A stretch of DNA of 14,399 bases from a virus (IMGVR_UViG_2711768167_000007:1-14399); one strand, 5' to 3'; shown: positions 2,193-14,399, counted from the first letter of the stretch. Numbers and translations are program-made. The notes: generated by a model not told the origin, from the letters alone.

Positions 2193-3053
2193 TCATTGCT
2201 CACACTCCCCAACCAGATTGAGTATGACCGCAGCGCTATTGTCTTTCATATATTCGCCCTTTCCGCTTGCCAAAAACCAACGACACACCTCCACGGCTTC
2301 AGCCCGTGTCACCGGTTTGATGGTCATCAGCAATTTTTCAAGGTAGCGCTCGCGGTCATATACCGATTCGTGATGCTCAAAGTAACCAAACTCATCGCCC
2401 TGTTCTTTAGTTGCAGTGTGGCGAACACTGTAGAGCCAGTCCCAGTAAACAAACTCACGAACTACGTCTGACAATGTATGAGGCTCTGGCAGTACATCAC
2501 GATAGCCATCAACATATGCACGACGCTGATCATCAATTTCATTCATACGGATGCCGTCAATTCTGCCCGCTTTCTTCTCGGCTGCAGTCCAGCCCCAGAG
2601 ATGATCGTCGATAAATTTCTGGGAAGACTTGATCACTCGCTCGGCTTCCACATCTTCGAGTGCTGCTTCATAGCTACCAAACGTAGCCCTGACTGATGCT
2701 GCTTTTTTGATATTCTCCCGGGCGATCCTGATTGCCTGTGCCGGGTTATCCATGCCGATGGTACCGAAAGCAATCTGGAAAGGATCGCCACCATTCGCCA
2801 GCAGATAACGCGAATAGCGTTCCTGGGCCTCTTTTGGGGATATTTTAATTTTCACCAGCGCGGCCTCAGCAGCATCCAGATGTGCGGGTTCGTTCAGACG
2901 GATAACCTCCAGTACCCAAAGATAAGCATCAGTCTGCTTATGCCCGGTGATTCTCCGTTGCTCTGGCAGGGGTTTGATGTTTGCGAGGGCGGAGCTGTAC
3001 GCTGCCGTCGGGATGGTGAATAGTGCTTTATGTTCGTTGTTATCAGTACGCAT
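2193..3053 (-). CDS. Hypothetical phage protein (nin-region position), 286 aa
   Basis: Long ORF with ATG start; its start overlaps the stop of the upstream primase-like gene (TAATG). No family recognised by eye. Confidence 0.55.
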   Translation of the reverse strand: MRTDNNEHKALFTIPTAAYSSALANIKPLPEQRRITGHKQTDAYLWVLEVIRLNEPAHLDAAEAALVKIKISPKEAQERYSRYLLANGGDPFQIAFGTIGMDNPAQAIRIARENIKKAASVRATFGSYEAALEDVEAERVIKSSQKFIDDHLWGWTAAEKKAGRIDGIRMNEIDDQRRAYVDGYRDVLPEPHTLSDVVREFVYWDWLYSVRHTATKEQGDEFGYFEHHESVYDRERYLEKLLMTIKPVTRAEAVEVCRWFLASGKGEYMKDNSAAVILNLVGECEQ

Positions 3054-4021
3054 TACGCAGCCGCCTTTTTCTTATGGAAAACCAGCTCCCGAACCTGATC
3101 ACCGTTCATGAGCATATTGTTGAAATCATCGTGATCCGGCCAGTACACGCTCACGCGCTGCAGGTCATTCTTTGCCATCAGATTGGCATGAGCACATTCG
3201 CAAGCCGCAGCCAGCCCGGTGGCGCTGTTCTCGTCACGGTCGGCAAAAATAATCAGGTGCAGAACACCAGCTGGTACGCGGAACTTTTTCATAAAGCCGC
3301 TGTTAATGGTTGCCCAGGTGTTCACGTTATAAATCTGGTGCGCTGACAGCGCTGTTTCGATGCCTTCGGCGATACCCAGAGTGCTGGCGACAGGAAACAT
3401 GCGGATAGCTACAGAACGAGCGTGATCCAGATAGTTATCTTCCTGCAGGGATTTTAGGCGCTTTGCACTGCTACCGATATCTGCTTTTTTATCACCATCA
3501 AGCAGGGTCTGGTGCAGATAGCACAGCTCCCCTTTATCGTCCGTAGCAAGTGAATAAAGAGACTGGAACACACTCCCGTTGTGTCTCTGCCTGGCATTGA
3601 ACCTGATCGCCTCAGCAGGAAGACTGAATATTCCACGAGAATTAAGATACGCGGCGCCGGATGTACCACGCAGTGCCTCCAGTTTTGAAAACTTGCTCAA
3701 TACCCGTTTGCGTAAGCTGGTGGCGCTGCTGGTTACCGGGATTTTAACCCGTTGGTAATTATTACCGATCAGGCGGTCTATTTCGGTACAAATCACGTTA
3801 AATGGCTTCGCCTGTGTCAGGGTGACAAGTTTCATACCATCGCCACTACCACATACACAGATCCACGTTCCTGCACCGTCGCGGTCGTCAATTCGGAACT
3901 TGCCACGTGCACCGCATACCGGGCATTCACCCTTAAAGTGATTTTTTCCGGTTATCGGCGGCAGACCGAAGTGCTCTAATATTTCAGGCCAGCGGCCTTT
4001 CGCTGCATCTGCTGTTTTCAT
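3053..4021 (-). CDS. Primase-like protein with N-terminal zinc-binding motif and Toprim domain
   Basis: CPVCGARGKFRIDDRDGAGTWICVCG zinc-ribbon-like motif near the N-terminus and an acidic Toprim-like block LIIFADRDENSATG. Start lies 2 nt after the helicase stop (translational coupling). Confidence 0.75.
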   Translation of the reverse strand: MKTADAAKGRWPEILEHFGLPPITGKNHFKGECPVCGARGKFRIDDRDGAGTWICVCGSGDGMKLVTLTQAKPFNVICTEIDRLIGNNYQRVKIPVTSSATSLRKRVLSKFSKLEALRGTSGAAYLNSRGIFSLPAEAIRFNARQRHNGSVFQSLYSLATDDKGELCYLHQTLLDGDKKADIGSSAKRLKSLQEDNYLDHARSVAIRMFPVASTLGIAEGIETALSAHQIYNVNTWATINSGFMKKFRVPAGVLHLIIFADRDENSATGLAAACECAHANLMAKNDLQRVSVYWPDHDDFNNMLMNGDQVRELVFHKKKAAA

Positions 4022-4022
4022 C

Positions 4023-5681
4023 TTACTGACTCAGACTGTTTATATTTTTCTGGAGTTGTTGCTTTGCCTGCATAATGCGCCAAGCCTCACTTTCTTCCGG
4101 TGGAACATACCGGCCACCAACAACCAGTGGCAGAGAAAGCACTTCGGATGAGTTTTTCGTCATCCTCCGTGTCCGTTCACGACCTTTAGCAAACCGGATC
4201 AGCTTGTGTCTGATGTAGTTACTTACCTCTGGGCTTATTTCCATCGGGAAACTGCTCAACCCATCAGGCCATTCACCGAATTTCTCCCTGAAAGTGTGAG
4301 CGCACCATCCATCACTGACTGGACGCCCCAGTGAGGCACGCTGGCGCTGATAAAATTTGATCTGACTCCACCAGGCCTGTTTCTCTGCCTTCGTGGACTG
4401 ATGCTGATTTTTACCCAGCTTATTAAGTTTGCGGCTAGTGTCAGTATCAACGTCTTCACCTCGCAGCGGCTTGTGTCCACATTTCGGGCAAACATAGACG
4501 CCAGCTGGCTTCATGTAGTGGCATTGAGGGCATTCATGTGGCAATTTTTCGGCCCGTTCCTCAACTGCGCGGCGCGTGCTTTCCTCCATGCCGTCAGACT
4601 TACCGGGAAGATCGTCGTACTCGATTGAATCCGGATAACCCAGACGGTGCACGGTGCCGCTGTGATCGAAGATAAGGCAGGACGCTTTACCCGGTGCGGT
4701 GCGAAGTCCACGCCCGAGTGCCTGCAACCAGCGAATTTCGCTTTTTGTTGGCCTGGCGTAGATGATGCAACGAACGTCACTATCGAATCCGGCTACCAGA
4801 ACGCCCACACTAACGATGATTTTCGTTGCACCGGTTTCAAAGCGGTGAATGATGGTCTGGCGCTCATCTACCGGAGTGTCGGCGGTCATTACCTCAGCGT
4901 TAACACCCGCCAGGTTAAACTGGATTGTCAGATAATTGGCGTGAGCTACGTTGACGCAGAAAGCGATGGTAGGTAAATCCCGACCATTCTCCAGCCAGTT
5001 CTGTACGATGTCGCCCACCAGCGTAGAGCCGCACATGATTTCAGCCAGCTGCGTTTCGTTGTAATCCCGGCCGTACTCAAGCGAAGATGTGGTTTTAACA
5101 CCTTTCAGATCCGGCTTAGTTGGCGCGTAAAATTCGTATTTACTCAGATCGCCACGCTGGATTAACTCGCCGATGGTGGTCGGCTTAATCAGTCGGTCAT
5201 AGTATTTGCCCAGGAACGGAGAAAACGGAGTACCCGACAGGCCAATCACCTTTACGCCTTTGCCGCGCAGACGTTCGATATCCTTCAGGATGCGTTTTTT
5301 ACGCAGGTGCGCTTCGTCGATAATCAGCAGATCGATATTTTCAGGAAAAACACGACGAATAAGCGTGTCAGCGCTGGCAATCTGAATTTTCCGGTCCGGA
5401 TCGTAGTTCGGGTGATCCGCCCAGATATAACCGATTTCATCTCCAGGTAAACCATACTGCACGAACCGATTAGCCGTCTGACCAATCAGGATGGTGTACG
5501 GAACACAGAACAGAACGCGCATACCACGGCTGACAAAACCAGCAACTATGAAGGCTGCCAGACCCGTTTTACCGCTACCGGTTGGCGAGTACACCATGAA
5601 AGTGTCGTTTGCCTTCCAGTCACGGCGCAACATGTTTAACGCTCGTTCCTGTGCAAAATTCGGCGTGATCGTCAGCTCCAT
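4023..5681 (-). CDS. SF2 (DEAD/DEAH-box type) helicase with C-terminal zinc ribbon; putative replicative helicase of the prophage
   Basis: Walker A VYSPTGSGKTG, motif II LLIIDEAHL, motif III LSGTPF, motif VI QALGRGLR, and CPQC...CPKC zinc ribbon in the C-terminal extension. Occupies the position lambda O/P would take, between the cII-position gene and the nin region. Confidence 0.85.
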   Translation of the reverse strand: MELTITPNFAQERALNMLRRDWKANDTFMVYSPTGSGKTGLAAFIVAGFVSRGMRVLFCVPYTILIGQTANRFVQYGLPGDEIGYIWADHPNYDPDRKIQIASADTLIRRVFPENIDLLIIDEAHLRKKRILKDIERLRGKGVKVIGLSGTPFSPFLGKYYDRLIKPTTIGELIQRGDLSKYEFYAPTKPDLKGVKTTSSLEYGRDYNETQLAEIMCGSTLVGDIVQNWLENGRDLPTIAFCVNVAHANYLTIQFNLAGVNAEVMTADTPVDERQTIIHRFETGATKIIVSVGVLVAGFDSDVRCIIYARPTKSEIRWLQALGRGLRTAPGKASCLIFDHSGTVHRLGYPDSIEYDDLPGKSDGMEESTRRAVEERAEKLPHECPQCHYMKPAGVYVCPKCGHKPLRGEDVDTDTSRKLNKLGKNQHQSTKAEKQAWWSQIKFYQRQRASLGRPVSDGWCAHTFREKFGEWPDGLSSFPMEISPEVSNYIRHKLIRFAKGRERTRRMTKNSSEVLSLPLVVGGRYVPPEESEAWRIMQAKQQLQKNINSLSQ

Positions 5682-6094
5682 TGTGCAGCTCCCGTGCTGA
5701 TGAGATAATAATTTTGTGATGTGGTTTTCATGGATTCCCCCTCACATGGCTGGTGGCCTCCCCAAAGGCTGCCAGCCTCCCTTCTGATTCAGCTCCTCTG
5801 AAAAATCACTCTTCCAGGAAGAATCCTTTTCGTTTCTCAGCGCCTGAGCGCTTTGTACTACCTTGCTGATACGGGCGTTTTTTTAAATTGCGCCCTTAAG
5901 ACAGTGATCTACTTAACCAATGGATCTCTCCTGTTGGAAAAGACCCTATTCCTGCCCCAACACCCAATCCCCCCTTACCCCCCTTACCCTCTTCCCCATA
6001 AAAACGTACTACTTCCCTAGTACACATGAGGAGTTGGGTCAGTTGGTTGCCAACCTGAACAGGCACCTTTAAGCCTGCTTCTGTTCGGGTACCT
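5682..6094. other. Structured 413-bp intergenic region upstream of the helicase gene (candidate promoter and/or replication-origin region)
   Basis: Non-coding gap inside an otherwise tightly packed operon. Contains imperfect direct repeats GGCTGGTGGCCTCCCC (5748-5763) and GGCTGCCAGCCTCCC (5767-5781), a palindrome AGGCTGCCAGCCT (5766-5778), a hairpin GTACTA-N6-TAGTAC (about 6005-6022), a palindrome GGTTGCCAACC (about 6044-6054) and a C-rich tandem-repeat tract. Function is inferred, not shown. Confidence 0.35.
5971..5988. repeat. Tandem 9-mer CCCCTTACC x2 inside a C-rich tract (5955-5997)
   Basis: Direct reading: ccccttacc (5971-5979) immediately followed by ccccttacc (5980-5988), flanked by further C runs. 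The minus strand here is G-rich with at least four G runs. Confidence 0.8.
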
Positions 6095-6403
6095 TTAAAC
6101 CCGAAACAATGAGGAGCGCGATTGCGATCCAGCCAGGGGAGGTTCGGCTGTATACCCCTGTAAAGCTCTGCCCTGATTTCTTACAAACAGGCGGAGCCTT
6201 GTGTTTGCTTCGTGCCTTGCTCTGTTCTCCTTGCGGAATGAAACAGGCTCAGCGTCAAAAGTGATTTCGTATACCTCCGCATATTTCAGGGCAACCTTCC
6301 GTCTCAGTGACGGAGGCAGCCCCTGTAACTGCTGCTGAATCCACTCTTCGTCTGCCTGGCAGTACCTAGATGGCATCTCTGTCTGAACGTAATTCTGGGA
6401 CAT
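6095..6403 (-). CDS. Hypothetical protein at the cII position (possible regulatory protein), 102 aa
   Basis: ATG start 12 nt downstream of the Cro-like gene's stop. Identity not recognised; call rests on position only. Confidence 0.5.
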   Translation of the reverse strand: MSQNYVQTEMPSRYCQADEEWIQQQLQGLPPSLRRKVALKYAEVYEITFDAEPVSFRKENRARHEANTRLRLFVRNQGRALQGYTAEPPLAGSQSRSSLFRV

Positions 6404-6415
6404 ACAAGCCCTTCA

Positions 6416-6688
6416 TCATTCGTTTTTCATAACTGCCGCATTTGTGGCTGTGTGACTTCTACGTAACAAATCAGGGATTGCATCTTCAGGATGGGGATAA
6501 AGATCTGGTCTTAACCCATGAGGAGTAACTTTCCATTCCACAACTTCACATACACGCAAGACGAAACGAGCAGGAATTGTTCTTTTTGAAAACCATTGGT
6601 TCACAGCTTGCGGCGTAACGCCTAGATTTCGCGCTATGGCATTTTGTGCAATTAGCTCACGAAGTGCGTCGTAATCATTTCCTTTCAT
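6416..6688 (-). CDS. Cro-like / YdaS-type helix-turn-helix regulator, 90 aa
   Basis: Small protein with HTH-like segment RNLGVTPQAVNQWFSKRTIPARFVLRV. Transcribed divergently from the CI-like repressor across an operator-bearing intergenic region. Confidence 0.75.
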   Translation of the reverse strand: MKGNDYDALRELIAQNAIARNLGVTPQAVNQWFSKRTIPARFVLRVCEVVEWKVTPHGLRPDLYPHPEDAIPDLLRRSHTATNAAVMKNE

Positions 6689-6822
6689 CGCAACCCACCA
6701 ATCTAAACTTTATAAATTCAAGATTACATCAAGTTTAAATTAACATGCAAGTCCACAAAAGATCGAATACACTAAAATCAAGTAAAAATTTATCGAAACC
6801 AAGTAACCAGCAAGGATTAACA
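6689..6822. promoter_or_regulatory. Divergent immunity promoter/operator region (oR-like) between Cro-like and CI-like genes
   Basis: AT-rich 134-bp gap between divergent HTH genes. ATCAAGT motif at 6728-6734 and 6777-6783; the 13-mer aaatcaagtaaaa (6775-6787) recurs beyond the repressor gene at 7540-7552. Confidence 0.55.
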
Positions 6823-7512
6823 ATGAAAAACTTAAAGAGCACTGAAAATCGAATTACAAAGCTGCTACAGGAGAAAGGCTGGAGCCAAGCAGAGCTGGCC
6901 CGAAAGTTAGGTGTCAGCGCACAGTCCGTACAGTACTGGACAACAGGAAAAACATTTCCAAGGGGAAACCGGCTTGCCCAGTTATCCGAAATAAGTGGTT
7001 ATCCGCAATCGTGGTTTTTAGGAGAAATCACGTCACGGCAGTTCTCTTCAAAGGAAAAACATCAAGCAAGAACTGACAGTGTGGTCTTTAACGTGCTCGA
7101 TGTTGAGTTTAGTTGCGGCGATGGAACACATGTCCGTGGGGACTTTATCGATGTAGTTCGCTCAATCGAGCTTGATCCTGAATATGCCCGTCGCCTTGTT
7201 GGCAATAGAGCATTTCAAAACATAGAGATTGGTAACGCAAGAGGAGATAGTATGGCTCCAACAATAGCCCCAGGAGATCTTCTTTTTCTCGATAAAACAG
7301 TGAATTACTTTGATGGTGATGGCATTTATGCTTTTTGCTTTGATGGTGAATGCTACGTCAAAAGATTACAAAAGATAGGAAGTAAAATCATGGTGTTATC
7401 TGATAACCCAAATTACCAATCCTGGAGCATTGAAAAAGATGCTCTTGAGCTGCTTTATATCCAATCGAAGGTAATATCATCTGTTCCATTCAATATAAAT
7501 AGATTTGGTTAA
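6823..7512 (+). CDS. CI-like prophage repressor (N-terminal HTH-XRE, C-terminal S24 LexA-type peptidase domain)
   Basis: HTH segment GWSQAELARKLGVSAQSVQYWTTGKTFP; S24 catalytic motifs GDSMAPT (Ser) and VKRL (Lys). Start chosen at the ATG at 6823 (RBS AGGA about 6 nt upstream) rather than the track's 6745 ATG, because 6745-6822 carries the operator repeats. Confidence 0.85.
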   Translation: MKNLKSTENRITKLLQEKGWSQAELARKLGVSAQSVQYWTTGKTFPRGNRLAQLSEISGYPQSWFLGEITSRQFSSKEKHQARTDSVVFNVLDVEFSCGDGTHVRGDFIDVVRSIELDPEYARRLVGNRAFQNIEIGNARGDSMAPTIAPGDLLFLDKTVNYFDGDGIYAFCFDGECYVKRLQKIGSKIMVLSDNPNYQSWSIEKDALELLYIQSKVISSVPFNINRFG

Positions 7513-7659
7513 TTATTTATTATTAAAGAAAAAATTTACAAATCAAGTAAAAGAGACGCAGAAATCAATTTTTTCTTGACAACCCCATCAATCAAGATCT
7601 AACATCACACCATCAATTTTAACTTGATTTGTTGTTAATTTTAAATTGATGGTGATTCA
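7513..7659. promoter_or_regulatory. oL/pL-like promoter-operator region driving the plus-strand early operon
   Basis: ATCAAGT at 7542-7548, ATCAAG at 7591-7596 and inverted CTTGAT at 7623-7628. TTGACA at 7576-7581 with TAACAT 18 bp downstream (7600-7605). Perfect 12-bp inverted repeat CACCATCAATTT (7608-7619) / AAATTGATGGTG (7643-7654) overlapping the start region of the next gene. Confidence 0.5.
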
Positions 7660-8088
7660 ATGAAAGATCTGACAACCACTGAGATATCGAACTTAAACCA
7701 CTTCGAAAAAGAATCCTTTGCATTAAATATTGCAAATCTGGTAGGTGCTGCTCGTACTTTCCATTTAATTGATGGTGATCGCTCTAAAGAATTGGGGTTT
7801 GAAGTCATGGAGTTTGTTCATGAATACGCCCTGTCTGCTACTTATCCATTACATAATCACATAATCAACAAACAACCAAATAAAATCCGCACCCAACGCG
7901 AAGCCTGCGGCTTAACAACCGCCGAACTCGCCAGGCTGCTCGATCTCGATGAAGAAATTATCATCCAGTGGGAAAGCGGAGAGTACGAACCAACCATCAG
8001 CATGCTTATCCCTCTGGCTAATGTTCTTGGCTGTGATCCAATGTTGTTATTGACTGATGCTTATAAACAAAATCAGGAGGAAGCATAA
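7660..8088 (+). CDS. HTH-XRE DNA-binding protein with uncharacterised N-terminal domain, 142 aa
   Basis: C-terminal segment IRTQREACGLTTAELARLLDLDEEIIIQWESGEYEPTISMLIPLANVLGCDPMLL is a typical XRE-family HTH; the N-terminal 70 aa are unrecognised. First gene after the oL-like region. Confidence 0.65.
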   Translation: MKDLTTTEISNLNHFEKESFALNIANLVGAARTFHLIDGDRSKELGFEVMEFVHEYALSATYPLHNHIINKQPNKIRTQREACGLTTAELARLLDLDEEIIIQWESGEYEPTISMLIPLANVLGCDPMLLLTDAYKQNQEEA

Positions 8089-8089
8089 G

Positions 8090-8281
8090 ATGAAAATGTT
8101 CAAAGGCCTTACCAACGAACCGGAAACAGCTTTTCATCACATTGCCGTACTGCTTGAAGCGGGGTTAATCATTTCGGCTTCCGGTGATGATGAATGTGAT
8201 GAACTTTCGGATGATATCTTTTTACTGGCACAACAATACGCCAGAAGCGCATGCGATGCATTTAAGGAGCAAAGAACATGA
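8090..8281 (+). CDS. Small acidic hypothetical protein, 63 aa
   Basis: ATG at 8090 is 2 nt after the upstream stop, with AGGAGG 9 nt upstream. Preferred over the track's 8057 start, which overlaps the upstream gene. Rich in Asp/Glu. Confidence 0.5.
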   Translation: MKMFKGLTNEPETAFHHIAVLLEAGLIISASGDDECDELSDDIFLLAQQYARSACDAFKEQRT

Positions 8282-8469
8282 AAACGCCCATGACTATGCT
8301 CGAATATGTAGCCGCAGAAATAAAAGAAAACACGTCAATGCTTGAGTTTATCTTTAAAAATTCGCCCGACTCAGGAGAGTTAGACGATTATTTATGTTGT
8401 CTCATCAGGTCCATGAATAAGACCTGTGAAATGGCTTACGAGTATATAGAAACACTACGTAACGAATAA
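8278..8469 (+). CDS. Small acidic hypothetical protein, 63 aa
   Basis: ATGA start/stop overlap with the preceding gene; AAGGAG 7 nt upstream. Acidic composition. Confidence 0.5.
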   Translation: MKTPMTMLEYVAAEIKENTSMLEFIFKNSPDSGELDDYLCCLIRSMNKTCEMAYEYIETLRNE

Positions 8470-8653
8470 AGAATACTCAATAAAAAATCACACATAAAAA
8501 CATGACGGCCTCTGGTCGGGAGTTTTCACAACCAGAAAATAATGGTGATACATGAAAAATAGAAGCGCTTATAAAACCGCCTTATTAATGGCTAATGCAG
8601 GATACTGGTCAGTTGCAATACTGTTTCTTAGGAAAGCATACGGGAAATAACAA

Positions 8654-9013
8654 ATGGCATATGAAATCATTGGTAAATATCGTCACCGCATAGTCACAAC
8701 AGCATTACAGCGGATGCAACGTAAAACAGGAGGAAATCTTCTCATCGTAAATCTTCCTGACGGAGGGTTAACTACCATCGAAATTACGGAACACTTCATG
8801 ACACAACTGTTATTACGATTTGAAGGTCTTACCCGTGTTGAATTTGGACGGACGGATGGCGAGACCGCAATACTTGCCGCATACCGGAATGCCATCAATA
8901 TTAATCAACACACTGAGTATCTAACTGAATCGGGGAAGTTAATTGTAGACAACCTTTTAAAAGAGGTTGTTGATTACGAAAAAGAAAAATATACCAGTGG
9001 AGGAATTAACTGA
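8654..9013 (+). CDS. Hypothetical protein, 119 aa
   Basis: ATG-initiated ORF after a 184-bp gap; stop overlaps the next ORF's start (TGATG). Confidence 0.5.
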   Translation: MAYEIIGKYRHRIVTTALQRMQRKTGGNLLIVNLPDGGLTTIEITEHFMTQLLLRFEGLTRVEFGRTDGETAILAAYRNAININQHTEYLTESGKLIVDNLLKEVVDYEKEKYTSGGIN

Positions 9014-9222
9014 TGTCTGATTTATCCCCTCTTATACACGAAAAAGTAAATATCGTGCTGACAATCGAGAACGGGAAAGTTATCCACGTGCGCCCGGTTC
9101 AGAACGGCGAGGTTACAGCATCGCTGGAGACTTTTTTATGGATGGCTGAACGCGCCGGTTACACGATCACCCCACCTGCAGGAGAGAAGGACAATGGCCC
9201 TGACAGCGATACGAATTCCTGA
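9013..9222 (+). CDS. Hypothetical protein, 69 aa
   Basis: ATG overlapping the upstream stop. Its 3' end overlaps the 9194 ORF by 29 nt, so one of the two may be shorter or not real. Confidence 0.4.
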   Translation: MSDLSPLIHEKVNIVLTIENGKVIHVRPVQNGEVTASLETFLWMAERAGYTITPPAGEKDNGPDSDTNS

Positions 9223-9415
9223 GCGGGTGCACCTGCAGGCGGTCCGTGTTCTCCGCAAGTTCAGAGCCAGACGAATTCATCCCTGTCGTATGCACGGCTC
9301 CGGAAACCTGAGTCTGAGGGTTAATCGCCGCTGGCGGCTGCTGTCCCGAGACGGCGGCCAGAACTGGGAAGTAATGAGCCATGAACGATACAGCAAAGTT
9401 AAGGACCGGAAATGA
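9194..9415 (+). CDS. Hypothetical arginine-rich small protein, 73 aa
   Basis: ATG at 9194 with GAGAAGGA RBS-like sequence just upstream; strongly basic (many Arg). Overlaps the preceding ORF. Confidence 0.3.
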   Translation: MALTAIRIPERVHLQAVRVLRKFRARRIHPCRMHGSGNLSLRVNRRWRLLSRDGGQNWEVMSHERYSKVKDRK

Positions 9416-9448
9416 ACAATAAACCTTCAAACCAAAAGGAGAGTATTG

Positions 9449-10027
9449 ATGATTAATTCAACCATTACCCCTGAACCTACATTAACAGGCATCCGTTTTG
9501 GTAATCGAATTATTGGTTATTCAACTGCGGTTCGCCAGATCGACAACGGTAACTATGACAAACGAATTCCGGACGGGCTCGATCTGATAGCTTGCATTAT
9601 GGAAGGGATTGAAAGCGGCTGGTTTATGCCGGGTATTGAAAAACAAATCATCCTATGGCGCTGGCTTGTTGTCGCCGTGTTCATTGCTGAGGAGCAGGAG
9701 AAGAACGGGACTGTCGATGTTCAGAATGACAAGGGCGGCGTAGATACAGCCGTTGTATACACAGGAAAACCCGGTTCAATCAGCATTTATCCGTGGTCTG
9801 AGCGCTTCACGCTCGCCAACCATATTGAGGCGGGCGCAATTGAAAAATACGGGCCTGACGTTGGCCAGCAGATGGCGCTGCGTATGTATCAGGACATGGT
9901 TGTAACTGACGAGAAATGCGGATTCAGGCTGTCAGCGATGGGCCAGGAGGGATTCAACATACTACATGACAGCTTCATTGAACTGATTCAGAAAGACGGT
10001 ATGCCAGACATGCCGGTTATGCACTGA
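9449..10027 (+). CDS. Hypothetical protein, about 192 aa
   Basis: The track ORF begins at a TTG (9446); the first ATG is at 9449 with AAAGGAGAG RBS 7 nt upstream. Followed 11 nt later by the next gene. Confidence 0.55.
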   Translation: MINSTITPEPTLTGIRFGNRIIGYSTAVRQIDNGNYDKRIPDGLDLIACIMEGIESGWFMPGIEKQIILWRWLVVAVFIAEEQEKNGTVDVQNDKGGVDTAVVYTGKPGSISIYPWSERFTLANHIEAGAIEKYGPDVGQQMALRMYQDMVVTDEKCGFRLSAMGQEGFNILHDSFIELIQKDGMPDMPVMH

Positions 10028-10038
10028 GGTGGACGAAA

Positions 10039-10788
10039 ATGAACATAGTAACGATCAATAACAAACAGTTTCCGGTAATCGACTATCGCGGTCAGCGCGT
10101 GGTGACGCTGGCGATGATTGATGAAGTGCACCAACGCCCAGACGGAACAGCGGGACGCAATTTCCGCGAAAACAAGTCTCGTCTTATTGAAGGGGAAGAC
10201 TACTTCGAATTAGGTTCCGACGAAATTCGTCGACACCTCCCTGACGGTACTTTCTCAAAATTTGCAGCAGCAGGAATTGTACTGGTCGAATCCGGTTATT
10301 TGATGTTGGTGAAATCCTTCACCGACGATCTGGCCTGGCAGGTTCAGCGCGAACTGGTTAACAGCTACTTCCGCACTCGCGCACCTCTTTCTGAAATCGA
10401 GATGATCGCCGCAATGGCCGCCGATGCCGTTCGCCAGCAGAAGCGCCTGAATCATGTGGAAGAACAGCTCGAAACAGTCACAGAAGCGGTGGAAACCATC
10501 AAACGCGGAAATATGCGCGCCGGATATGTCGGTTATCGCCAGGTGGTCGCCAAAAGCGGAATGACTGATGCTAAGTGCCGCAATCTGGTCAATGCCTACA
10601 GCATCCCAACCGATACGCACGAATTTATGACACCAGATGGTCTTCTTTCGCGCCGGGCTATCGTGGAGCTGGAGCCGTTCATGAAAGCATTTCATCAGAT
10701 GATGTCAGAGGCAGAGCCACGCGGCACACGCTGGTATCACCCGAAGATGGGACTTTTCCAGGTGATCGGATGGGAGGATAAAGCATGA
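10039..10788 (+). CDS. ORF6N/KilA-N-superfamily domain protein (antirepressor-like DNA-binding protein), 249 aa
   Basis: N-terminal segment QRVVTLAMIDEVHQRPDGTAGRNFRENKSRLIEGEDYFEL follows the ORF6N pattern (...RN..RF.eDF.F.L..eE) as I recall it. GAGGTGG RBS upstream. Coupled to neighbours on both sides. Confidence 0.6.
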   Translation: MNIVTINNKQFPVIDYRGQRVVTLAMIDEVHQRPDGTAGRNFRENKSRLIEGEDYFELGSDEIRRHLPDGTFSKFAAAGIVLVESGYLMLVKSFTDDLAWQVQRELVNSYFRTRAPLSEIEMIAAMAADAVRQQKRLNHVEEQLETVTEAVETIKRGNMRAGYVGYRQVVAKSGMTDAKCRNLVNAYSIPTDTHEFMTPDGLLSRRAIVELEPFMKAFHQMMSEAEPRGTRWYHPKMGLFQVIGWEDKA

Positions 10789-11354
10789 TCATCCAGTCAA
10801 AACTTATTCGCGCCGCTCTGGTGTGCGCTGCTAAAAACGACGTTCGTTATTACCTGAACGGTCTTCACATCACGCCGAAACATATTGAGGCAACCAATGG
10901 TTGCGTGGCACTGCGCATGGCTCACGGCATCCGGACGAAGAAAAACATCATTGTCCAGTTCGAAGGGGGCGTACCGGCCAAAGCCGAAACGACAGAGCTG
11001 ATTTTTAGTAAAGAGCCGATCGCTGTTCATCGCGACCAGTTTCAGCGACGACTGTCCATTACCGGCATAAAACTGGTGGACGGTTGTTTTCCGGATTTGG
11101 ATCGCATCATTCCGAAAAAGTTTGACCGCTGTACTCATCCGGTGATCCAGGCGGGTTACCTGAGTTATCCAGAGAAGATGTTTGGTCGTGAGCGTAAATT
11201 TATTCCCGTCCAGTTACGTCCCTCCGGTGACGGGCAAGCGGTCAGAATTCAGTTTGATTCCATCATCAACTCAATGTATGGCAATCCTGAATTTGTTGTG
11301 ATGCCTTGTCGTGATTATGGCGATTTCAACGTGGCTCAGGAGCATCCGGAATGA
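10785..11354 (+). CDS. Shortened beta-sliding-clamp (DnaN)-like protein, 189 aa
   Basis: Motif-level matches to E. coli DnaN recalled from memory: NDVRYYLNG vs QDVRYYLNG (start of DnaN domain II), KLVDGCFPDLDRIIPK vs KLVDGRFPDYRRVLPK (end of domain II), C-terminal EFVVMPCR vs AYVVMPMRL. ATGA overlap with the upstream gene; GGGAGGA RBS. Confidence 0.6.
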   Translation: MIIQSKLIRAALVCAAKNDVRYYLNGLHITPKHIEATNGCVALRMAHGIRTKKNIIVQFEGGVPAKAETTELIFSKEPIAVHRDQFQRRLSITGIKLVDGCFPDLDRIIPKKFDRCTHPVIQAGYLSYPEKMFGRERKFIPVQLRPSGDGQAVRIQFDSIINSMYGNPEFVVMPCRDYGDFNVAQEHPE

Positions 11355-11575
11355 AAATCGAATACCAGGACTATGGCGCCGTAGCGAACATCGTGATCAC
11401 CAGTTCCCGCCTGACATTGCAAAAGCATAACCGCGTTGTTGATGCGGTGCTGTTTAATGTACAGGGGATCTATGAAAACCGCAGCGGCTTTTTCTGGGTT
11501 AAGTCATCGTTGTCAGGAAAAACACGCGACATCCTGCGCGCCTACAAAATCGTACAGCGGGAGGCAAAGCGATGA
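11351..11575 (+). CDS. Hypothetical protein, 74 aa
   Basis: ATGA-coupled to the upstream gene, with CAGGAGC RBS-like sequence. Confidence 0.45.
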   Translation: MKIEYQDYGAVANIVITSSRLTLQKHNRVVDAVLFNVQGIYENRSGFFWVKSSLSGKTRDILRAYKIVQREAKR

Positions 11576-11667
11576 AGTCATTCCTCCTGTCCATGCTGTT
11601 TGGTCTGCTGCTGGCGTCCGTCGTTTTCGGTGCGCTGATTGAATATAAATTTTTAATGAATTACTGA
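11572..11667 (+). CDS. Candidate small hydrophobic (single-TM-like) peptide, 31 aa
   Basis: Not in the ORF track (too short). ATG at 11572 overlaps the upstream stop (ATGA). Translation MKSFLLSMLFGLLLASVVFGALIEYKFLMNY is dominated by a hydrophobic stretch. Confidence 0.3.
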   Translation: MKSFLLSMLFGLLLASVVFGALIEYKFLMNY

Positions 11668-11675
11668 GGTGCGGA

Positions 11676-12305
11676 ATGAGCAAGATCAAAAACCCAGTTG
11701 TACTTATCCATAAACGAGAAAATAGTGACTCCTACGCCGTTGCAATCACCTGCGGTAGCCAGAACTATCACGACGCCGTTCTGATGGCGTCGATGGAACT
11801 GGATATGAGTGACGATGATGTCGATACCTGGAGTAAAACCGGCTACTACATGGCTCAAGAAATCGAGCGACTTAAACAAGCGCTGTCCGCTGCGGAAAAT
11901 AATTTGATTGATTCCGAATGCCTCGTCGCTGAATTAAGCAAAGCAAAGAATCACGCATATGGGCTGGTCGACACATACGACTGGCAACGTCAGCGTCTCC
12001 ACGCAGCCGCAGAGAAAGTCATCAAATGGTGCAGACAAGAAGCTGAACACCGTACCGGCGACCCAGAGAAAGCAGAAAACTATGCGTGTGTTAAAGAACT
12101 ACGCGACGCATTAACTTTTTGCAAAAGTTCTGAAGGCAGCAAGAAGAAAGGCCTGACCATCACCCTGCCCGATATCACATCAAAGGCATTCTGGAGCGGT
12201 ACCGGAAAAAACGCAAAATTCCATCCGGAAACCTATAAACGCTGGGTGAAAGAAGCTGTCAAACGGGATTGTGTTATTGCCGGGATCGGCGTGGAGGTGA
12301 AATGA
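11676..12305 (+). CDS. Hypothetical protein, 209 aa
   Basis: ATG with GAGGTG RBS. No family recognised; occupies the region where lambda carries ea-type accessory genes. Confidence 0.55.
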   Translation: MSKIKNPVVLIHKRENSDSYAVAITCGSQNYHDAVLMASMELDMSDDDVDTWSKTGYYMAQEIERLKQALSAAENNLIDSECLVAELSKAKNHAYGLVDTYDWQRQRLHAAAEKVIKWCRQEAEHRTGDPEKAENYACVKELRDALTFCKSSEGSKKKGLTITLPDITSKAFWSGTGKNAKFHPETYKRWVKEAVKRDCVIAGIGVEVK

Positions 12306-12388
12306 TGAATTGGCCTGAAGCATTCACCGCAGTAGGAGTTGCAATAGCGGTGGCATTTATTCTGTATTCGCTTTTCCGCTGGGGATAA
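12302..12388 (+). CDS. Candidate small hydrophobic peptide, 28 aa
   Basis: Not in the ORF track. ATG at 12302 overlaps the upstream stop (ATGA). Translation MMNWPEAFTAVGVAIAVAFILYSLFRWG has one hydrophobic helix-length segment. Confidence 0.3.
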   Translation: MMNWPEAFTAVGVAIAVAFILYSLFRWG

Positions 12389-12392
12389 AGGA

Positions 12393-12635
12393 ATGTTCGC
12401 TCTGATTCAACGTGGTCAGATATACACCGATAGTGCTGGCTACCCGGTAAAAATTATTCGCTGCATAAACAACACTGTGTTGTACAGAAGAATGGATGGG
12501 AGAACACAGTCGGTAAAAATAAACGATTTCAATGAACTGTTTGAACGGATTGATCACCAGGAATACCGACAAATTCTGGCAGAAACAGAGCAGGAAGCTC
12601 ATCTGAAAAAATTACGGGCCATGAAAAGGAAGTAA
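12393..12635 (+). CDS. Hypothetical small protein, 80 aa
   Basis: ATG with AAGGA RBS 3 nt upstream. Basic C-terminus. No family recognised. Confidence 0.5.
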   Translation: MFALIQRGQIYTDSAGYPVKIIRCINNTVLYRRMDGRTQSVKINDFNELFERIDHQEYRQILAETEQEAHLKKLRAMKRK

Positions 12636-12638
12636 AGA

Positions 12639-12785
12639 ATGAATAAAGCATTTGAACTATGGGTGCGCCAGCGTTATGGCAATCGCTATGACCTGACGCG
12701 AGATGTTGACGGTTTCTACTGTCGTGAAATTGTGAAACGAATGTTTGAAGTGTGGTGCCACTGCCGTGGGCTGAGTGTTGTGTGA
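12639..12785 (+). CDS. Hypothetical small protein, 48 aa
   Basis: Not in the ORF track. ATG at 12639 with AAAAGGAAG upstream; translation MNKAFELWVRQRYGNRYDLTRDVDGFYCREIVKRMFEVWCHCRGLSVV. Confidence 0.35.
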   Translation: MNKAFELWVRQRYGNRYDLTRDVDGFYCREIVKRMFEVWCHCRGLSVV

Positions 12786-12793
12786 GGTAATGC

Positions 12794-13030
12794 ATGGGCA
12801 ATGTGATTCAACTGGCTCCCAATGAATGGGTTTGTGAAAGCGTTCTAATCGCAATTACCGGGCTCAAACCAGGCACAATTCTTCGGGCCCGAAAAGAATG
12901 CTGGATGGTTGGAAGAGAGTATATTCACGTATCACCAGACGGTAATCCAAAGCCTTCCAGTGAATGTATGTATAACAGAAAAGCAATAGATGCCTGGGTC
13001 GCTTCAATGAAAAACAAACAACCTGGGTGA
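12794..13030 (+). CDS. Excisionase-like protein (putative Xis)
   Basis: 78-aa protein immediately upstream of the integrase on the same strand. The segment GLKPGTILRARKECWMVGREYIHVSPDGNPKPSSECMYNRKAIDAWV resembles the putative-excisionase family of enterobacterial prophages as I recall it. Confidence 0.6.
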   Translation: MGNVIQLAPNEWVCESVLIAITGLKPGTILRARKECWMVGREYIHVSPDGNPKPSSECMYNRKAIDAWVASMKNKQPG

Positions 13031-13085
13031 TTTAATGCCATGAAGTATGTAAGCTCGTATCGCTCTTGGGCGTCTGGAGGTATCA

Positions 13086-14399
13086 ATGGATAAAGTCAAA
13101 TATCCAACAGGCGTCGAAAACCACGGCGGCACATTACGCATCTGGTTTAATTTTAAAGGTAAACGTGTCAGGGAAAATCTTGGTGTCCCTGACACTGCCA
13201 AGAACAGGAAAATCGCCGGGGAACTGCGGACATCGGTATGTTTTGCCATCCGCACAGGAAGCTTTGATTATGCTGCACAGTTCCCTGACTCCCCTAACCT
13301 TCAGGCTTTTGGGGTAAGTAAAAAAGAAATTACGGTGAAGGAACTTGAAGAAAAGTGGCTGGATCTGAAACGAATGGAGATCTCTGCAAATGCATTCAAT
13401 CGCTATGAATCCGTTGCAAGAACGATGGTTCCGAAAATTGGAGGCAGCAGACTGGTGTCATCGGTAACTAAAGAGGAATTGCTGTATATCAGGAAAGATT
13501 TGCTGACCGGGTACCAGAATTCAACGAAAAACAAAGCAGCAGCAAAAGGACGGAGCGTCGTTACTGTAAATTATTACATGACGACAATCGCTGGAATGTT
13601 TCAGTTTGCTGCAGATCACGGTTACTTAGAAGCAAATCCCTTCCAGGGAATTAAGCCTCTTAAAAGAGCCAGGGCAGAGCCAGATCCGCTAACTCGTGAC
13701 GAATTTATTCGCCTGATAGATGCTTGCCGACATCAGCAGACGAAAAACCTGTGGTCATTGGCTGTGTACACAGGAATGCGTCACGGTGAACTGGTCTCCC
13801 TGGCCTGGGAAGATATCGATCTGAAAGCAGGAACTATTACTATCAGGCGCAATTATACGAAACTCGGTGAGTTCACTCTACCTAAAACTGAAGCAAGTAC
13901 AAACAGGGTTGTGCATCTTATCCAGCCCGCTATCAGTGTCCTGAAAAATCAGGCTGAAATGACAAGACTGGGTAAGCAGCACCACATCAAGGTTCAACTA
14001 CGTGAATATGGGCGTTCAGTGAATCATGAATGTACTTTCGTATTTAACCCCCAGGTGGTTAGAAAAAGCAAACAGGTCGGTTTTATCTACAAGGTAGATT
14101 CTATTGGCGACTCATGGGAAACAGCCATTAAGCGTGCGGGCATCAGGCACCGGAAAGCATACCAGTCACGACACACTTATGCGTGCTGGTCATTATCTGC
14201 CGGAGCAAATCCAAGCTTCATTGCCAGCCAGATGGGCCATGCAAGTGCCCAGATGGTGTTCAATGTATACGGAGCATGGATGACTGACAGTAATGCAGAA
14301 CAGATCGCAATGCTGAATCAGAAGCTGGCAGATTATGTCCCAATGATGTCCCATGGTCACCAAAGTGACACAAGAGACTTATTAAAATCAGTGGGTTAG
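13086..14399 (+). CDS. Tyrosine site-specific integrase (phage integrase family)
   Basis: GGAGG RBS 5 nt upstream of the ATG. N-terminal arm-binding-type region (PTGVENHGGTLRIWFNFKGKRVRE), catalytic-domain motifs RHGELVSLAWEDIDL, SRHTYACW (box II R/H) and GHASAQMVFNVYGAW (His and Tyr nucleophile region). Stop codon is the last three bases of the window. Confidence 0.9.
   Translation: MDKVKYPTGVENHGGTLRIWFNFKGKRVRENLGVPDTAKNRKIAGELRTSVCFAIRTGSFDYAAQFPDSPNLQAFGVSKKEITVKELEEKWLDLKRMEISANAFNRYESVARTMVPKIGGSRLVSSVTKEELLYIRKDLLTGYQNSTKNKAAAKGRSVVTVNYYMTTIAGMFQFAADHGYLEANPFQGIKPLKRARAEPDPLTRDEFIRLIDACRHQQTKNLWSLAVYTGMRHGELVSLAWEDIDLKAGTITIRRNYTKLGEFTLPKTEASTNRVVHLIQPAISVLKNQAEMTRLGKQHHIKVQLREYGRSVNHECTFVFNPQVVRKSKQVGFIYKVDSIGDSWETAIKRAGIRHRKAYQSRHTYACWSLSAGANPSFIASQMGHASAQMVFNVYGAWMTDSNAEQIAMLNQKLADYVPMMSHGHQSDTRDLLKSVG

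Follow-up and report, generated by a model that had tools for sequence, protein, structure and literature searches.

A stretch of five small genes at 9449-11667 in a phage genome, four of which are joined by overlapping stop and start codons, raises the question of whether genes packed this tightly form one functional unit. The genes, called g1 to g5 here, lie in a window of 14,399 nucleotides (nt), which is the whole stretch of DNA that was analysed; its source is a phi467-like temperate phage. The original prediction had read them as a translationally coupled operon and, possibly, as a distinct module for host takeover or exclusion. Our analysis places them in an ordinary, highly mosaic early-left accessory stretch that carries one already annotated, functionally unexplored family, that of g3. 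Probably 9449-11667 is a set of individually exchangeable early-left accessory cassettes that recombine at gene boundaries, with g3 a truncated beta clamp among them. The five genes, with lengths in amino acids (aa) and isoelectric points (pI), are:

9449-10027, plus strand: g1, 192 aa, acidic (pI 4.7); PHROG 1515; ATG start with AAGGAG upstream
10039-10788, plus strand: g2, 249 aa; ORF6N N-terminal domain and a C-terminal domain
10785-11354, plus strand: g3, 189 aa; truncated beta-clamp homologue ('mini-clamp'), pI 9.1
11351-11575, plus strand: g4, 74 aa, basic (pI 10.2); PHROG 1001
11572-11667, plus strand: g5, 31 aa; hydrophobic, resembling a single transmembrane segment; grand average of hydropathy 1.39

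The predicted layout was confirmed in its coordinates and junctions. The five open reading frames (ORFs) share one strand, g1 and g2 are separated by 11 nt, and the junctions g2/g3, g3/g4 and g4/g5 are each an overlap of 4 nt (ATGA). The domain calls also held, namely ORF6N for g2 (PF10543), DnaN-like for g3 and a hydrophobic peptide for g5, as did the position in the early-left operon, with the immunity region on one side and xis/int on the other. A Shine-Dalgarno sequence of its own precedes every one of the five genes, and homologues of g1, g3 and g4 were found by the hundreds for each, with conserved length. From these homologues and, for g5, from the DNA variants described below, all five predicted ORFs are genuine genes. 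The overlaps had further been said to imply stoichiometric co-expression; where each start has a separate Shine-Dalgarno sequence, overlap alone is no proof of that.

The flanking genes are packed in the same way. Sixteen co-directional genes run on the plus strand over roughly 6.7 kb, from 7660 to the integrase, and their successive junctions over 7660-14399 measure -32, -4, +184, -1, -29, +33, +11, -4, -4, -4, +8, +87, +3, +8 and +55 nt. The next gene downstream, g6, starts only 8 nt past g5, and no sequence mark was found at either edge of the five-gene stretch. Location on the same strand, near-abutting or overlapping neighbours and the lack of an internal terminator are true of the five genes and of the flanking genes alike. 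Because the packing is equal throughout and the boundaries are unmarked, 9449-11667 is a slice of a longer compact early-left array, which we infer to be co-transcribed from an early-left (pL-type) promoter. The ATGA overlaps are a general trait of this compact operon, not specific to the five genes, and by themselves they do not delimit a functional unit.

The neighbourhoods of the genes were read in IMG/VR scans, in which the best 80 matches each, out of 362, 393 and 152, were considered, a sample biased towards close relatives; for g3 the comparison set comprised 80 IMG/VR loci and several Escherichia coli prophages. At the 83 loci anchored on g3, g4 was present in 70, g2 in 61, g6 in 34, g1 in 28 and g5 in 6. 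The gene-neighbourhood check that the original prediction had proposed thus shows that the five genes are not co-inherited, g1 and g5 accompanying g3 at just 28/83 and 6/83 loci. Reading from the other genes gave a similar picture. Loci anchored on the C-terminal domain of g2 had g3 downstream in 20 of 73 cases and lacked it in 53, and at g4-anchored loci g3 was found upstream in 37/79 and was absent in 42/79.

Other genes occupy the same slots. When g3 is absent, g2 is followed either by g4 itself or by one of several unrelated cassettes (112, about 128 or 141 aa), and here too the junctions are ATGA overlaps. Genes for the ParE-like toxin, for a 41-aa hydrophobic peptide or for a Bro-N protein are also found ahead of g4. 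Similarly, an ATGA overlap joins g3 to the gene directly before it in 70 of 82 loci, whatever protein that gene encodes. The upstream partner is a g2-like ORF6N protein (33 loci), a Bro-N protein (12 loci) or a Rha protein with the g2 C-terminal domain (9 loci); among the remaining partners are a 73-aa protein, a Lar-like protein of 84 aa and two further classes of ORF6N.

A single exchange is clearly seen in phage phi467 (LN997803), which is 94-97% identical to the window in parts. The phi467 genome matches the window at 6091-10782 and 11350-12788, so that g3 alone has been exchanged and the breakpoints coincide with both of its ATGA junctions. It keeps g1, g2, g4, g5 and g6, and the g3 slot is taken by a 112-aa gene of no relation to it (M.LITQNFRLNALANQY...). 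A closer match to the window is an E. coli TUM1886 prophage with its integrase next to yecE, which is 98.9-99.4% identical over window positions 2194-5693 and 6091-14399. Among 5,426 complete E. coli genomes, one covers at least 80% of the region, and pieces of it are shared by 88. In E. coli prophages with the gene order SPFH-ORF6N-clamp, the flanking genes differ. Long co-directional arrays of small genes, overlapping stops and starts and gene-by-gene exchange at the boundaries are also the marks of the lambdoid early-operon mosaic regions of the ea/b-region and nin-region style; the present array differs from these in gene content and has no Red/RecET/Erf recombinase.

The identity of g3 was established by sequence and by fold. 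Using the single sequence, phmmer aligned g3 residues 5-117 with residues 136-256 (domain II) of E. coli beta at E=1.5e-3. A 25-sequence family profile raised this to E=4.5e-20, with positions 7-164 on beta 136-296, and profile positions 120-178 also align to beta 314-365. The motifs DVRYYLNG, KLVDGxFPDxxRxxPK and a C-terminal VVMPxR, the last being the clamp's own C-terminus, are common to g3 and DnaN; the C-terminal half-domain of g3 ends in VVMPCR. The AlphaFold2 (AF2) model of g3 has about 1.5 clamp domains, with a predicted local distance difference test score (pLDDT) of 91.5 and a predicted template modelling score of 0.87. All 48 Foldseek matches of this model in the PDB at E<=0.001 are beta clamps, at a query-normalised template modelling score of about 0.6. 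The model contains only two long helices (5-14 and 123-133) and has no second inner helix in domain II.

The homology stops short of a full clamp. A DnaN has three clamp domains in a chain of about 366 aa, whereas g3 has 189 aa and no domain I, and it scores under the curated DnaN thresholds (21.1 bits vs 137.65 for TIGR00663 and 16.9 vs 27 for PF02767). By these comparisons g3 is a DnaN homologue made of domain II and a half-domain, a truncated paralogue of the host clamp, but it is not a DnaN. Because domain I is absent, g3 appears to have lost the parts required for a head-to-tail ring. It shares with E. coli beta (PDB 1MMI, 1JQJ) the homology in domain II, the beta-alpha-beta-beta-beta fold and the residues of the pocket for clamp-binding motifs. 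It differs in its length (189 vs 366 aa) and in the lack of domain I, of half of domain III and, in the model, of one inner helix of domain II. Moreover, DnaN is acidic and g3 basic, and g3 is phage-borne, dispensable, below the curated thresholds and structurally doubtful as a ring former. The basic character is a family trait, with a median pI of 8.4 in the short clamps (9.1 in g3) vs 5.2 in 67 full-length DnaN proteins.

The pocket is the best-kept part of this truncated protein. In the host clamp, subsite I of the pocket is formed by R152, L155, T172, G174, H175, R176, L177, P242, R246, V247, V360 and M362, and subsite II by H175, N320, Y323, V344, M362, P363, M364 and R365 (PMC11139829). 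We were able to map 17 of the 18 residues listed in that review onto g3. Eleven of the 17 are identical (R152, L155, T172, G174, P242, R246, Y323, V360, M362, P363 and R365), and some of the others are conservative replacements. In a set of 144 family representatives whose median identity to g3 is 28%, pocket residues make up seven of the ten most conserved columns (hypergeometric p=1.3e-6).

The family to which g3 belongs is large. Searches at E<=1e-10 gave 3,846 clusters, nearly all of the best 150 being 170-215 aa long, and 253 isolated phages carry a g3 homologue; g3 itself matches PHROG 3007 at E=1.5e-64. In size (about 170-215 aa) it fits the family, as it does in its motifs, which are N-terminal xxRYYLxG, TxGH and DGxFP together with C-terminal VMPxR. 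Like the other short phage clamps of PHROG 3007 in length, motifs and early-gene location, g3 is set apart in an enterobacterial temperate-phage branch by a C-terminal extension of about 10 residues, Ant-like neighbours and a Cys at the His175 position. Labels in the family vary between 'DNA polymerase III beta subunit', 'beta sliding clamp', 'hypothetical' and, via PHROG 3007, 'RusA-like Holliday junction resolvase', and RefSeq names proteins near-identical to g3 'beta clamp domain-containing protein'. The RusA label is a widespread mislabel (for example NC_054651.1 17626-18162 and NC_025458.1 25330-25878). We also considered RusA as an identity for g3 and rejected it, as there was no RusA match in Pfam, NCBIfam or the PDB and all matches were beta clamps. 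No functional study of phage truncated clamps was found in the searchable literature, where genome descriptions use the gene as an annotation or phylogenetic marker.

The settings of the short clamps differ between phage lineages. When species genomes were scanned with the g3 profile, true dnaN genes made up most of the matches, and just seven were mini-clamps. In T1-like and related virulent phages (L085, L169, L330 and L331), a short early operon begins with the gene of a ParB/KorB-like protein and closes with the mini-clamp, and in three of these four a conserved ORF of 57-58 aa overlaps the mini-clamp start. In a Vibrio phage it lies amid RdgC, exonuclease, methylase and SSB genes. The unrelated carriers KpV2811, Skarpretter and Shewanella 1/41 have primase, helicase and SSB genes and no annotated DNA polymerase; the window and the TUM1886 annotation likewise give a primase and a helicase and no DNA polymerase over that stretch. 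A gene of the SPFH/band-7 class was observed near the mini-clamp in unrelated phages, in the SPFH-ORF6N-clamp order of E. coli prophages (L003 5130-7319, L004 5133-7319) and within 2 kb of it in the virulent phage Skarpretter (L334 1247-3893). This recurrence may be a coincidence.

What such a protein would do can be proposed more tentatively. The possibility that we put forward first, with less than an even chance of being right, is that g3 works away from the ring as an adaptor or decoy, using its pocket to dock clamp-motif proteins. Early after induction, this pocket would bind proteins with QLxLF-type clamp motifs, such as the alpha or epsilon subunit of DNA polymerase III (Pol III), Hda or repair polymerases. 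Host replication factors would thereby be tethered or else redirected and diverted. A redirection of host replication factors is suggested because the phage has genes for a helicase and a primase and none for a DNA polymerase. That the clamp-like gene alone could have a host-directed role is plausible. Phage intervention at the beta-clamp hub is a theme that g3 would have in common with Gp168 of Twort (PDB 7EVP) and MuC of Mu (PMC12867686). MuC binds the host clamp through a clamp-binding motif (PMC12867686). Both Gp168 and MuC bind the host clamp, whereas g3 would instead imitate the clamp's binding site. Across all window proteins, canonical clamp-binding motifs gave chance-level matches only. 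One such match, QLLLRF at 8804-8821 (residues 51-56 of the 119-aa ORF at 8654-9013), fits QLxLxF; about one is expected by chance, and it is probably meaningless.

Extended to the whole family, the idea becomes more doubtful. The short clamps might be a widespread, loader-independent, basic 'half clamp' of polymerase-less phages that bring helicase and primase, reduced to the docking pocket of the host clamp; by capturing or tethering clamp-motif proteins there, it would redirect the host replisome to phage DNA or disable host replication control, a four-subunit ring being a variant of this proposal.

Several points weigh against the picture drawn so far. The asymmetric co-occurrence could mean that g3 depends on its neighbours, since an Ant-like gene stands before it at about 85% of the loci and g4 after it at 84%. 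Retention of the pocket residues is no proof of peptide binding, as they also rank with the structurally best conserved positions in any DnaN. At two pocket positions g3 departs from its own family, with Cys40 (10902-10904) at the equivalent of His175, where 91% of the family have His, and Gln122 (11148-11150) at the equivalent of Asn320, where 72% have Asn. The closest E. coli relatives of g3 also have Cys or Phe at the His175 position and Gln for Asn320; these deviations in the g3 branch may reflect an altered ligand preference or a relaxed constraint. In addition, the lack of a polymerase is common in phages of 40-50 kb, and its correlation with the mini-clamp is weak and drawn from four genomes. 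Finally, the view of the array as a single operon rests on gene packing and weak consensus scans.

Among the alternatives, the one that survives best, though we consider it unlikely, makes g3 a DNA-encircling processivity clamp, either a tetramer or a tail-to-tail dimer in an open crescent like UL44, that serves the host Pol III on phage DNA without a clamp loader. The arithmetic fits, as four subunits of three beta-alpha-beta-beta-beta units each give the 12 units of the normal ring. An unusual clamp is also consistent with the 1.5 domains or so of the model and with a profile that covers domain II and one or the other half of domain III, with a basic pI unlike that of DnaN, with an early or replication-associated gene in several polymerase-less phage lineages, and with the retention of the pocket that would hold Pol III alpha. 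However, the helix missing from domain II in the AF2 model leaves the DNA-facing helical layer incomplete, domain I, which is half of the beta dimer interface, is absent, and close relatives, phi467 among them, can do without the gene. The herpesvirus proteins UL42 and UL44 have a clamp fold and form no closed ring and need no loader; their basic face binds DNA while the polymerase is held. The likeness of g3 to them is by analogy only, as no sequence relation was detected and they are not among the top fold matches. Moreover, their partner is a viral polymerase, and this phage has none.

A second alternative concerns the pairing of g3 with g2. Residues 13-93 of g2 are an ORF6N domain (PF10543, E=1.3e-14, 54.6 bits vs a Pfam cut-off of 27.8), and g2 matches PHROG 1726, a family called 'anti-repressor', at E=5.5e-66. 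The C-terminal domain (about 117-249, PHROG 6610) ends in RWYHPKMGLFQVIGWEDKA; relatives of g2 carry ORF6N, Bro-N or Rha as the N-terminal domain on this same C-terminal domain. From its domains g2 is a predicted DNA-binding protein of the ORF6N/KilA-N class, 'anti-repressor-like' by name only. With a bona fide ORF6N and the typical domain shuffling, it resembles the KilA-N/Bro-N/ORF6N/Rha 'anti-repressor-like' phage proteins. It differs from ant of P22, which is under its own, separate control, while g2 sits within the repressor-controlled early operon.

It is improbable that g2 and g3 form a two-component unit in which the Ant-like C-terminal tail (RW-HP-x-phi-G-x-F) docks as a clamp-motif-like peptide in the pocket of g3 and the mini-clamp is thereby carried by a sequence-specific DNA binder. 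The tail motif is kept across upstream partners with unrelated N-terminal domains, as KMGLF (ORF6N/Rha), EFGGF (Bro-N) and AVGRF (the Lar-like 84-aa protein), it is similar to x-phi-x-L-F clamp motifs, and the upstream gene overlaps g3 by ATGA at most loci (70/82). On the other hand, the motif lacks the conserved Gln of clamp motifs and is missing in two ORF6N classes upstream of g3, the g2 tail is present without a downstream g3 in 53 of 73 loci, and the mini-clamps of other phage lineages have no such neighbour.

The reading with which the original prediction started, that all five genes form a single host-takeover or superinfection-exclusion module, translationally coupled and stoichiometric, is very improbable. 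It can point to the three successive ATGA overlaps next to the 11-nt gap, and to the frequent order of an Ant-like gene, g3 and g4 at g3 loci, where g2 is present in 61/83 and g4 in 70/83 and the g3/g4 junction is an ATGA overlap in 61 of the 70. Against it stand the rarity of g1 and g5 at the g3 loci, the majority of g2 C-terminal domains (53/73) and of g4 genes (42/79) found without g3, and the other cassettes that fill the same slots, phi467 having no g3 and yet g1, g2, g4, g5 and g6. Distant mini-clamps moreover occur in different settings, for example with ParB-like or replication genes, each of the five genes has a separate Shine-Dalgarno sequence, and the PADLOC search turned up no defence system. 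The sole match to the PADLOC-DB defence models was that of g2 to PDC-S05 at E=0.033, which is chance-level. The module reading fails because the genes occur independently in other phages (g3 accompanying the g2 C-terminal domain in 20/73 loci and g4 in 37/79, and the swap in phi467), which is the outcome that the original prediction itself had named as speaking against it. Its statement that no product resembles Bet, Exo, RecT or Erf was correct, with no such match in Pfam, PHROG or NCBIfam; in the same three collections the nine ORFs at 8654-12305 gave no product of the Red, RecET or Erf systems (Exo, Bet, Gam, RecT, RecE, Erf). None of the five genes matches a known defence or recombination family.

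Finally, there is next to no chance that g3 is a dead remnant of a captured dnaN fragment, since, short, below the TIGR00663 and PF02767 thresholds and replaceable in relatives as it is, its family comprises thousands of clusters of 170-215 aa with near-invariant motifs down to about 20-28% identity in many phage lineages, and its AF2 model is confident and compact.

The cassettes around g2 and g3 gave fewer clues. The match of g1 to PHROG 1515 is strong (E=4e-87), and some of its homologues carry DUF5375 (PF17345). The start of g1 annotated by RefSeq/PGAP in TUM1886 is the equivalent of 9509, which would give 172 aa. Because the homologues are 192-193 aa long (almost all of the 120 listed) and AAGGAG lies upstream, the longer form with the ATG at 9449 is likely to have the right start. 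The AF2 model of g1 has a pLDDT of 78; searches of the PDB and BFVD gave it no significant structural neighbour, and the g1 profile had no match in the PDB. The g4 gene is the commonest downstream neighbour of g3, yet it often occurs without g3, and the sequences seen come from Enterobacterales only. A profile search of the PDB with g4 was empty. That g4 might be the 'missing half-domain' of g3 was tried and rejected at the level of sequence, as a g4 alignment of 58 sequences, compared by hhalign with DnaN and with the g3 family, gave a probability below 1%. The remote-homology search proposed for the 192-aa and 74-aa proteins thus gave no informative similarity.

For g5, 23 DNA variants with an intact ORF were found, and in nearly every one of them synonymous changes exceed non-synonymous changes (12 to 3 in one case). 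This pattern points to purifying selection on g5, a predicted small membrane peptide. RefSeq has no g5 in TUM1886, and g6 is annotated there only as a pseudogene fragment. Hydrophobic peptides of 41 aa, similar to g5, were observed at other positions of related arrays.

The other features of the early-left array and of its immediate surroundings are:

6745-7512, plus strand: cI-like XRE gene
7576..7605, plus strand: sigma-70-like site, TTGACA-18-TAACAT, 10/12 matches; candidate early-left promoter, by consensus match only
7660-8088, plus strand: helix-turn-helix protein, first gene of the array
8057-8281 and 8278-8469, plus strand: small ORFs, upstream array genes
8654-9013, plus strand: 119-aa protein; PHROG 1737
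9013-9222, plus strand: 69-aa acidic protein (pI 4.67); PHROG 340
9194-9415, plus strand: ParE-like toxin, 73 aa, very basic (pI 11.95); PF24732, E=2.9e-19
11676-12305, plus strand: g6, 209 aa; PHROG 492
12393-12635, plus strand: DUF4222 protein
12639-12785, plus strand: 48-aa ORF
12794-13030, plus strand: excisionase
13086-14399, plus strand: integrase

The site at 7576-7605 is the best promoter-like site and lies just past the cI-like gene and ahead of the first array gene; in total, sigma-70-like sites in the region are not more numerous than in shuffled sequences, and terminator-like sites do not exceed the shuffle expectation either. The minus strand of the window encodes antiterminator Q-like, helix-turn-helix, toprim primase (3053-4021), DEAD-box helicase (4023-5681) and cro-like genes. 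Between the helicase and the cro-side genes, the TUM1886 prophage has an extra NUMOD4-domain, homing-endonuclease-like gene (5973-6792), which is lacking in the window (5693-6091). The 69-aa acidic ORF and the ParE-like toxin gene overlap by 29 nt, and their layout resembles that of an antitoxin-toxin pair. Rfam and tRNA scans of the window gave no match, and its base composition is unremarkable.

Apart from the conserved 31-aa membrane peptide g5, which has been left unannotated in RefSeq, the interest of this array of cassettes lies in the truncated-clamp family. This family is large and visible in databases, and it includes T1-like and P22-like virulent phages of therapy collections. Its strongest conservation falls on what is, in the host clamp, the partner-binding pocket. 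If it is true that the mini-clamps bind clamp-motif partners, they would represent a new phage route into the bacterial replication hub, and they would provide a natural reagent for probing the competition between clamp partners.

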